The notes beneath the pieces were generated by a model. The model did no database searches and was not told where the DNA came from. It worked only from the letters and a program-made list of their open reading frames with translations. From IMG/VR virus record IMGVR_UViG_2671180921_000012: a stretch of 64,000 nt of DNA, one strand, 5' to 3'. The translations under genes were made by a program, and so were the position numbers. This stretch comes from a virus. Its lineage: Duplodnaviria; Heunggongvirae; Uroviricota; Caudoviricetes. Positions 53,735 to 55,610 of the stretch are shown here, one piece after another (position 1 is the stretch's first letter; the number at the start of each line of letters is the position of its first letter).

Positions 53735-54523
53735 ATGGCAGCACAAAATACTAAAGCAATTCAATACCGCCTGCGTAATGGCCAGAGTGTCGAAGTGACC
53801 ATCAATAATGATGGTGTACCTGGCGAAAAGGTTTCTATCTCCGATCTGGCTATCGAAAAAACCATCATGTGCCACCTTGGCTTTACTGAAGAAGTGAGCA
53901 AAAAGCATGGTGTAGCAATCTGGAGCGCAATGGATACTGGTATGCGCAAATTCATTACTGCTCGCACCCCAGGGATGACCATGATGGACCTCATGCAGAT
54001 TGCGCCGCTGTTTGAATGTGAGCCTTTAGATGTATTCAGCAATCCAGCTATCTGCCAGCAGTTATATGGTGAGATGAAACTCGCGGTTACCCCCATTGTG
54101 CTGCATGAAGGATCGCTTGCTGGCGTGTGGAAAGTGGAGCGTATTTCAAGCTACATGCCTTTCCATGTCAACGGCGTAATCACTGGTGAAAATCAACCTG
54201 TTTCCGTTATAAAGTCAGACCTCAAGCGCGCAATTCTTGAAGCAAGTTGTCGAGTTGTCGGCCTGGGCAAACAGTCTTATGTTTCCTTCCCGGCTGGCCC
54301 TGAAGGCCCGGCAGAAATTCTGATTATGGATGCCGATCTGCTATGGCAAATACAGTTTCTGATTGGCAAAAGCATCATCCGCGCTGAAGAACTCGATCAG
54401 TACATTACCTGCACGATGACGGATGAAGTCAAAAGTGTGGCTATAGCCAATGCCCGGAACCTATGTCGTGCTGCATTAACAGAACTGCAAGAAAACACCA
54501 CGGAAGAGGTGGAAAGTGATTAA
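53735..54523 (+). CDS. Hypothetical protein coupled to the terminase-like paralog (262 aa)
   Basis: ORF 53615..54523 trimmed to internal ATG; stop overlaps downstream GTG start; may correspond to a P1 IS1-flanking gene. Confidence 0.4.
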   Translation: MAAQNTKAIQYRLRNGQSVEVTINNDGVPGEKVSISDLAIEKTIMCHLGFTEEVSKKHGVAIWSAMDTGMRKFITARTPGMTMMDLMQIAPLFECEPLDVFSNPAICQQLYGEMKLAVTPIVLHEGSLAGVWKVERISSYMPFHVNGVITGENQPVSVIKSDLKRAILEASCRVVGLGKQSYVSFPAGPEGPAEILIMDADLLWQIQFLIGKSIIRAEELDQYITCTMTDEVKSVAIANARNLCRAALTELQENTTEEVESD

Positions 54524-55610
54524 TCGTATACAGAATGAATCTGCCTGGTTAGCACTGATAGAACGGTATAAAGACAATTGGGAACTGGCAGCAAAAGAGT
54601 TGCTTGATATTGAGTTAACACCTCATCAAGCAAAAATTATTAACGCGATAAAGAACACCGGAGCCAAAGTCACTGCCACCACACCACATGGTATTGGGGA
54701 AACCTCTATTGTGGCAGTGATTAGCATCCTGCAAACAATACTGTATTCGTGTTCCCGTACAGTGGTTGTTTCTCCTGCGATTAACGATAGTCGAAAAACA
54801 ATAATTGACTATATGTTCCGTTATTGGGAGCGAGTTACCCAAAAACACCCTTTTCTTGGCAATTATTTCAGAATACACCCTGACAAAGGGTTGGTGCATA
54901 TCAGTGAAACATGGGGATGCGTCTATATAACCTATTGTCTGAATAACGAAGAGTCTCTGGCTGGTTTTACTGGACCGCACGATCTTTTCATCGTTATTAA
55001 CTCGGCGGAAATCAGCGATCGCGCTCATGCAGTGATAACTGGCAATTTAACCAATTATGACTCGCGCCTGCTGTTGCTGTCGAAACCATCGGAACGCGAG
55101 AAAGGGTACTTTTATGATTCGCATCACCGGTTGACCCATAGTAAAAACAATCCTGCTGGTTTTTTCACGGCGATAACTCTAAACACAGAGGATTCACCTC
55201 TCGTTTCTGAAGCATATCTTGAATTCAAAGCCAAAGAGTTTGGTGGGCGCAATAGCGATGAATATCGCCGATTGATCTTGGGGAAATTCCCCGGGATTCG
55301 GGAGTTGATGGAAAAGTCATCTGTTCCCCGTAATATGCACTTCACAATGACTGACGGTAGTAAATGGGTAGTGCCTACGATCGTGATCGCCAAACACCAT
55401 GCGAAACATCACGCTCAAAAACACAACTCCAGCACATTAGACTGGCTGAAGGCCTATACAATACCGTTATTCTCGGCAAACCATAACGCTATAACTGAAT
55501 GGGCTAAACAAATCCCCTGGCAGGATGTGGCTGAAGAGGCATTTGTCGAAAAACCACCAAGAGATTTGCACGAGCACTGTTGGCTGACATCAGAAAAAAG
55601 CTTCTCGTGA
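54516..55610 (+). CDS. Terminase large-subunit ATPase-domain paralog with degenerate Walker motifs (364 aa)
   Basis: Aligns by eye to the PacB N-domain in this window; Walker A Lys replaced (PHGIGETS), Walker B DE replaced (NS); no nuclease domain. Confidence 0.5.
   Translation: MINRIQNESAWLALIERYKDNWELAAKELLDIELTPHQAKIINAIKNTGAKVTATTPHGIGETSIVAVISILQTILYSCSRTVVVSPAINDSRKTIIDYMFRYWERVTQKHPFLGNYFRIHPDKGLVHISETWGCVYITYCLNNEESLAGFTGPHDLFIVINSAEISDRAHAVITGNLTNYDSRLLLLSKPSEREKGYFYDSHHRLTHSKNNPAGFFTAITLNTEDSPLVSEAYLEFKAKEFGGRNSDEYRRLILGKFPGIRELMEKSSVPRNMHFTMTDGSKWVVPTIVIAKHHAKHHAQKHNSSTLDWLKAYTIPLFSANHNAITEWAKQIPWQDVAEEAFVEKPPRDLHEHCWLTSEKSFS

Follow-up and report, generated by a model that had tools for sequence, protein, structure and literature searches.

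A PacB-related, predicted non-catalytic terminase paralog with an exchanged C-terminal domain in an optional gene string of P1- and D6-type phage-plasmids

Few phage proteins are as conserved as the large subunits of terminases, which are also major targets of the pattern-recognition immunity of bacteria. Their ATPase domain alone is a ligand of the sensors Avs2 and Upx, and recognition by EcAvs2 uses the ATP that is bound in the terminase active site (bioRxiv 10.64898/2026.04.30.721860). The same report describes vs.8 of phage T4, a stand-alone, nuclease-less paralog of the terminase ATPase that is encoded outside the packaging module. It is the nearest described analog of the protein that is the subject of this article (the likeness is drawn from that description). 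The protein in question, 364 amino acids (aa) long, is encoded at 54516..55610 (+) in a 64,000-nucleotide stretch of viral DNA, IMG/VR record IMGVR_UViG_2671180921_000012 (the whole of which is called "the window" in what follows), and the source is a P1-like phage-plasmid (Punavirus). It is very probably a pseudo-enzyme: derived once from a large subunit of the PacB type, with its ATPase scaffold kept and its nuclease domain swapped for another, it would be the last gene of a compact and optional tad2-like–isaA–paralog operon. No prior description of this PacB paralog was found in the literature; public records label it "hypothetical protein" or, misleadingly, "terminase large subunit" (as in GenBank MH422554), an annotation that warrants caution.

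Judged by its sequence, the paralog clearly descends from the terminase large subunit family. Its reference is the true large subunit of the window, PacB (494 aa; pacB, 35157..36641 (+)), with which BLASTP aligns it at 35% identity across 266 aa (E 2e-54); comparison of the two profiles with hhalign gives a probability of 100% (E 1e-53) over residues 1 to ~265, and there is a match to PHROG phrog_2, the terminase large subunit (E 5e-9). On these alignments the PacB-type ATPase-like domain is placed at residues 1-262 (54516..55301 (+)), and the resemblance to the N-terminal ATPase domain of PacB, which the initial annotation had drawn by eye, is borne out by formal pairwise and profile alignment alike. 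The curated collections are silent: the paralog has no match in Pfam or NCBIfam and none in PADLOC at E<=0.1, and profile searches of PDB sequences returned no match for it, for IsaA or for its C-terminal domain. (A side note: although genetics has established P1 PacB as a terminase, none of the Pfam terminase families matches it either, even at E<1 (pacB 35157-36641), and a profile containing PacB reaches solved terminases weakly, by way of the nuclease tail. The PacB lineage lies outside the current curated terminase models.)

The catalytic residues, however, are gone. Motifs were compared in an alignment of six true terminases (the PacB proteins of P1, D6, a Vibrio plasmid and a Spartinivicinus plasmid, TerL of Xanthomonas phage Rb1, and the metagenomic P0003) with four paralog alleles. 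At 54681..54704 (+) the P-loop, or Walker A motif, reads TPHGIGET in place of SGHGTGKS (the changes include G57P and K62E); the three allele types have TPHGIGET, TPHGIGRP and TPHGIGHK, so that S56, G57 and K62 are lost in all of them and the position of the lysine is taken by R or H in the other alleles. Walker B, at 54984..55001 (+), reads LFIVIN in place of LYIIDE, with D162-E163 of PacB standing opposite I161-N162 of the paralog, and DE has become IN, VD or MD across the alleles. The initial annotation was right that the Walker A lysine is replaced and that the acidic pair of Walker B is lost, but its register for the latter ("NS" opposite DE) was off by one residue. Among the 33 positions of the ATPase domain that are invariant in the six terminases, 16 are kept and eight are lost in all four alleles; six of these eight fall in the P-loop (S56, G57, K62) and the Walker B region (D162, E163, G166). 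The nuclease domain has 15 invariant positions; 14 of these are lost in all four alleles and the last, a proline, survives in three, so that not one is common to all. This pattern of kept and lost invariant positions in the aligned sequences is far beyond chance, and it predicts neither ATPase nor nuclease activity for the paralog. Nor does the gene adjoin one for a small subunit: pacA (the small terminase subunit, 33964-35157) and pacB lie together at 33964-36641, ~18 kb away from the paralog, which follows ssb and isaA at 54516-55610. Because three defining features were looked for and found wanting, the paralog is not regarded as a functional member of the terminase family.

What has taken the place of the nuclease? 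The initial annotation took that domain to be simply absent; it is indeed missing, but an unrelated and widespread domain of ~90 aa stands in its stead. Residues 262-364 have no similarity to the PacB nuclease domain (residues 262-494; hhalign probability 0.2%). A superficial MAFFT alignment to the terminase C-terminus had made a nuclease remnant a candidate, which was rejected on the hhalign result and on the membership of the segment in a separate domain family. The domain itself (~94 aa, 55326..55607 (+)) corresponds to the C-terminus of phrog_17928 (E 7e-15). A phmmer search with the last 104 residues of the paralog against 1.84 billion representatives (cut-off E<=1e-3) found 151 relatives that cover the whole domain; 144 have a full domain match, the domain being stand-alone in 94 (proteins of ~100 aa), C-terminal in 29 and N-terminal in 19, with partner domains that are almost all uncharacterized. 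The family consensus is V.MPDGS.W.VPV..IA..RA..YA...DT.PLF..D..EI.DWA.NNM.W.DV, and the family has neither a Pfam model nor a relative among solved structures in the PDB. It is strongly acidic, with a median isoelectric point (pI) of 4.46 and a net charge of -9; the window's copy, with nine histidines, a pI of 7.6 and a net charge of 0, has lost this acidity. In annotated phages the members lie in early replication/recombination neighborhoods. In Xanthomonas phage CP2 (locus L013, 2771-4306) the domain is the C-terminus of ORF36, a DUF1351 protein, with genes for DUF2303, Erf, an exonuclease, an endonuclease and SSB as neighbors; in Cronobacter phage JK004 it stands alone as gene_35 (locus L012, 3995-4291), one gene beyond a DnaB-like helicase. 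The family is a candidate for a new one of small acidic early phage proteins. (In a chromosomal protein, P0047 (locus L017, 6001-8384), the domain precedes, on the N-terminal side, a PacB-like segment whose P-loop, GSGTGTTT, is degenerate; its gene is cut off by an opposite-strand Tn3-like transposase gene, and AbiH and a RecA-dependent nuclease gene are nearby. An association of the domain with PacB-like segments may thus recur, but a truncated gene offers only a hint.)

At least three types of paralog allele exist: the P1-type, the D6-type (52% identical to it) and P0030 (366 aa, on a D6-type backbone), and the P-loop and Walker B are degenerate in all of them. Paralog alleles are 31-37% identical to any PacB, while the PacB proteins of P1 and D6 are 57% identical to each other. 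The alleles form a clade of their own, 40-50% diverged and uniformly 364-366 aa long, and they are closer to each other than to PacB, which points to a single origin followed by divergence and not to repeated recent duplication. The ratio of nonsynonymous to synonymous substitution rates (dN/dS), calculated by the Nei-Gojobori method, ranges from 0.20 to 0.32 overall; between P1-type alleles with 57-73 differences it is 0.26-0.32 when the gene is taken entire, 0.30-0.36 in its ATPase-like part and 0.10-0.20 in the C-terminal domain, compared with ~0.1 for isaA and 0.06-0.11 for ssb (53044..53532 (+)). All six alleles that could be translated from DNA have exactly 364 codons and no stops (P0030 is known only as protein). 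With dN/dS this low and six stop-free alleles of one length, a decaying pseudogene is excluded; the retention of a catalytically degenerate paralog as an intact open reading frame (ORF), which the initial annotation had asserted, agrees with both. (In the closest phage record, vB_EcoM-813R1 (ON470617.2; locus L003, 3017-4110), the paralog lacks 1 nt close to the 3' end and is given a length of 356 aa, which reflects a sequencing error or else a frameshift that arose recently within the C-terminal domain.)

The paralog does not travel alone. In the window the gene order is lyz (-), ssb (+), the 262-aa ORF (+), the 364-aa ORF (+), hxr (-) and ddrB (-). For the 364-aa ORF the start codon is a GTG, and the overlap with the upstream TAA amounts to 8 nt (GAGG-N6-GTGATTAA); the ORF coordinates agree with the translational coupling of the two genes downstream of ssb that had been read from the sequence at the outset, and the isaA/paralog start/stop overlap is conserved in three lineages. 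Divergent P1-type plasmids have the order ssb - Tad2-like - isaA - paralog - hxr; D6-type plasmids have dut - Tad2-like - isaA - paralog - doc/phd, at a position unlike P1's. The Tad2-like gene lies directly upstream of isaA at loci L004, L005, L014, L015 and L016, and its domain matches PF11195 with 65-80 bits against a cutoff of 25. Tad2 (DUF2829) is an experimentally characterized sponge for the Thoeris signaling molecule (bioRxiv 10.1101/2023.05.01.538930). From the window the tad2-like gene (~680 bp) has been precisely deleted, leaving its ribosome binding site and ATG fused to codon 3 of isaA; the scar, at 53715..53745 (+), was located by blastn and alignment against L014, L015 and L004, and P1 has the same deletion. 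(The Tad2-like proteins of L004, L014, L015 and L016 are 216-228 aa long, with a ~135-aa N-terminal extension before the Tad2-like domain; SPO1 Tad2 has 89 aa.)

Every paralog locus inspected has isaA upstream, while IsaA without the paralog occurs at locus L007, in P1 and in a plasmid of Raoultella, where an ars operon follows it; co-occurrence was inspected in detail at seven loci and is otherwise taken from summary tables. In those tables the paralog matches almost all lie over two overlapping annotated ORFs; the few that do not are for the most part D6-type rows, together with a record that has no annotation. PLSDB holds IsaA in 466 plasmids (336 P1-type, 130 D6-type) and the paralog in ~162 of 755 PacB-bearing plasmids (~21%: ~120 P1-type and ~42 D6-type), each of them with a true pacB. 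Among 5,426 complete E. coli genomes 100 (~2%) have the paralog, again with a true pacB beside it in each case, and 99 of the 101 copies are on plasmids of ~95 kb. (A technical note: homolog searches based on a word index gave very few relatives of the paralog; the exhaustive HMMER search was the informative one.)

The upstream partner calls for a correction. The initial annotation spoke of a "terminase-like gene pair", but the 262-aa protein (53735..54523 (+); acidic, pI 5.0) is IsaA, 94% identical over 302 aa to IsaA of P1, and is unrelated to PacA: BLASTP finds no match and hhalign gives a probability of 0.1%, on which the candidacy of IsaA as a PacA-like small subunit was dropped. Alignment with divergent homologs places its true start at the ATG at 53735; the homologs in D6-type elements are 46-47% identical. 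IsaA has no match in Pfam, NCBIfam, PADLOC (E<=0.1) or the PDB, and its AlphaFold2 model (predicted local distance difference test score (pLDDT) 58) is confident only at residues ~40-120. Foldseek searches with IsaA of the PDB and BFVD yielded only the fragment of P1 itself and matches without significance. In a screen by CRISPR interference isaA was non-essential for P1 lytic growth (PMC10695390). (Between ssb and isaA, at 53538-53720 (+), the spacer contains an unannotated 60-aa ORF for a very basic protein (MSKKRLKEKRWSKRQQKHELAKKRQ...); the spacer is ~94% conserved in P1 and in Tad2-bearing relatives, and the P1 record extends isaA upstream into it.)

The slot that the paralog occupies, between ssb and hxr, is known from publications on P1-like elements as the variable region "RD-2" or "region 2" (PMC6906374, PMC9603915). 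Window positions 53000-56500 are 99.3% identical to vB_EcoM-813R1 and 96.6% identical, over their full length, to "Punavirus P1" MH422554, but reference P1 covers only 68% of them. Nucleotide homology to P1 ends at 54524, one base past the isaA stop, and resumes at 55644, in the hxr stop codon; what fills the gap in P1 is 1.7 kb (94 bp, the insertion sequence IS1 and isaB) and in the window a paralog gene of ~1.1 kb. The initial annotation supposed that this is where IS1 sits in P1 and that the window holds the undisrupted genes. The site is indeed the same, but the second part is wrong: P1 isaA is intact, and IsaB is similar neither to the 364-aa protein nor to PacB. IsaB as a remnant of the paralog was rejected for want of protein similarity and of nucleotide homology between 54525 and 55643, and a tblastn search of the P1 locus with the 364-aa protein turned up no trace of it. 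Because homology breaks at the stop codons and IsaB is unrelated, P1 is seen to hold a different cassette and not a disrupted paralog. (The stop codons of isaA and hxr, two convergent genes, form the exact borders of the variable cassette. P7 carries nmpC/odaA in the ssb-hxr slot; with IS1 and isaB of P1 in the same place, it is whole cassettes that are replaced.) The right border, hxr (55642..55950 (-)), is the first gene of the convergent hxr-ddrB-ddrA-darA operon, whose role is in antirestriction (roles as given in PMC10695390).

When would these genes be expressed? An Ossb-like operator for the C1 repressor, ATTGCTCTAATTAATTT, precedes ssb at 53007..53023 (+) (read from the sequence; it corresponds to the annotated Ossb of P1), and no intrinsic terminator is predicted on the + strand between ssb and 55610. 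From these two features together we infer co-transcription of ssb, isaA and the paralog, as a transcript that would be early and C1-repressed. (A promoter-like element at the isaA/paralog junction, 54514-54532 (+), AAGTGATTA-ATCG-TATACA, resembles the P1 late promoter LPlyz, AAGTGATTT-GCAT-TATCCT at 52962-52980 on the - strand of the window. The LPlyz-like pattern has four matches in the window against 0.97 expected, the -10 hexamer of the junction element lacks the final T, and its transcript would begin past the GTG start; the element probably owes its existence to the GTGATTAA overlap of start and stop.)

If the paralog neither hydrolyzes ATP nor cuts DNA, what is it for? Lost motifs together with purifying selection make the non-catalytic role already suggested for it a reasonable inference. 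An intact protein that is catalytically dead, optional and, in relatives, encoded next to an anti-immunity gene probably binds a partner and does not serve packaging. The preferred reading, tentative and possible rather than probable, is that the paralog acts as a non-catalytic binding or mimic protein of an early counter-defense operon: it would take no part in DNA packaging and would bind its partner early in lytic growth. The role of terminase ATPase domains as sensor ligands, taken with the counter-defense neighbors, leads to its most specific version, in which the paralog would mimic the terminase ATPase fold, the signature of infection for host sensors such as Avs1-3 and Upx. Because it could not hold ATP-Mg, it is proposed to occupy or divert a sensor of this kind, or some other factor that binds terminase, and yet not set it off. 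As an ATP-blind mimic it would occupy or mis-assemble Avs1-3 or Upx receptors before PacB appears, with the Tad2-like protein and IsaA covering other defenses; so specific a scheme is quite doubtful.

Several considerations weigh against the binder-or-mimic reading at one level or the other. Any binding partner is so far putative, and association with Tad2-like and Dar genes is a weak argument; the tad2-like gene is absent from the window and from P1, so these genes are separable, and neither IsaA nor the paralog matches PADLOC or anti-defense families. At only ~35% identity to PacB, mimicry of its surface is not assured, and the AlphaFold2 model of the paralog, made from shallow alignments, is too poor (pLDDT 47) for the surface to be inspected. 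The sensors in question respond to little ligand, so a stoichiometric decoy may be ineffective. The scan behind the co-transcription is, finally, a crude one: it also missed the ssb promoters that are annotated in P1.

The main rival stays with packaging but turns it against others: the dead ATPase domain would bind PacA, PacB or pac-site complexes as a dominant negative, and so poison packaging by rival P1- or D6-type elements, or by satellites with the same terminase, or bias which DNA is packaged. Inactive subunits of oligomeric motors are classic dominant negatives; the closest relatives of the paralog are the PacB proteins of the same phage-plasmid group, core scaffold residues are conserved, and an accessory gene in a hotspot is what conflict between elements leads one to expect. 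Yet co-expression with the element's own PacA and PacB in lytic growth would risk self-poisoning, and the apparent repression by C1 in lysogens is the wrong timing for incoming rivals. An identity of 31-37% gives the paralog no special kinship, either, with the PacB of its own element, its operon partner belongs to an anti-defense family and is not a packaging gene, and pacA/pacB are ~18 kb off; interference with packaging accordingly falls on the unlikely side. The homology to PacB and the probable early expression would suit the packaging regulation named in the initial annotation, with a paralog that adjusts when PacA/PacB of its own element cleave pac or how processively they do so. That is made unlikely by the majority of relatives, which do without it: ~80% of PacB-bearing phage-plasmids, P1, P7 and D6 included, lack the paralog and package normally. 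It sits, moreover, in a known variable cargo region, and its C-terminal domain is common to phages with unrelated terminases, so that such regulation must be rated improbable.

One can turn instead to the C-terminal domain and make it the working part, aimed at a replication or recombination protein or at DNA, with the ATPase-like scaffold as an inert adaptor. The position in the ssb operon fits, as do the neighbors of the domain elsewhere (the DnaB-like helicase in JK004; DUF2303, Erf, exonuclease and SSB in CP2), but early regions also hold genes for host takeover and anti-defense, which makes the context ambiguous; the fused copy has lost the acidity of its family (pI 7.6 against a median of 4.5), and there is no homology to known replication or recombination proteins. 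We accord this accessory function little probability. Least probable by far is that nothing is done at all, and that a decaying pacB duplicate hitch-hikes with isaA. Its catalytic motifs are gone, it is dispensable in many relatives and the vB_EcoM-813R1 copy has its 1-nt deletion; but the low dN/dS across 57-73 substitutions largely refutes a relic, as do a length that is held (six alleles of 364 codons, the seventh of 366 aa) despite up to 48% protein divergence, a constraint on the C-terminal domain that is tighter than that on the ATPase-like part, and the conservation of the start/stop overlap with isaA in three lineages. What probability remains goes to "something else".

Whichever of these holds, the findings define an accessory module of three closely packed genes and, with members in hundreds of phage proteins, a new domain family of ~90 aa. 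A dead terminase paralog, maintained by selection, is seen to travel in the company of an anti-Thoeris-type gene in accessory hotspots of P1/D6 phage-plasmids, which are of medical relevance. It is a directly testable candidate for immune evasion by mimicry or for packaging conflict between elements. If the mimic hypothesis is true, the paralog would be the first case of a phage that encodes a decoy of a conserved viral "pattern" protein, and the stand-alone, acidic relatives of its C-terminal domain would make up a new family of small early counter-defense proteins.

How, then, does the paralog compare with what is known? With PacB of P1, D6 and P7 it has in common the whole ATPase domain and the N-terminal segment, including the scaffold residues W134, G197, F199, H203-H204, S227-P228, Y250, G256 and F258, and the two are carried by the same group of phage-plasmids. 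Unlike PacB it is without the P-loop lysine and glycine, the Walker B Asp-Glu and the nuclease domain; it is optional and not essential, belongs to the ssb operon instead of lpa-pacA-pacB, and ends in a foreign domain. The isaA-IS1-isaB region of P1 is the same ssb-hxr slot with an orthologous isaA (94%), but its cassette, IS1 plus isaB, has no sequence in common with the paralog cassette of the window. To Tad2 clusters the tie is one of position: in relatives a Tad2-like gene adjoins isaA-paralog upstream, tightly packed, and the string is likened to anti-defense clusters as early, accessory and sited in a hotspot that borders on the antirestriction operon of the Dar genes. IsaA and the paralog nonetheless have no sequence similarity to Tad2 or to catalogued anti-defense or defense proteins, and the window is without the tad2-like gene. 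The ~90-aa domain is common to the paralog, CP2 ORF36 (phrog_17928) and JK004 gene_35; there it is stand-alone or fused to DUF1351 and acidic, whereas the window's copy is fused to a dead ATPase and is neutral and histidine-rich. T4 vs.8, finally, keeps both Walker A and Walker B and is reported to activate EcAvs2 on co-expression; the P1-type paralog has lost both motifs and carries an extra C-terminal domain.

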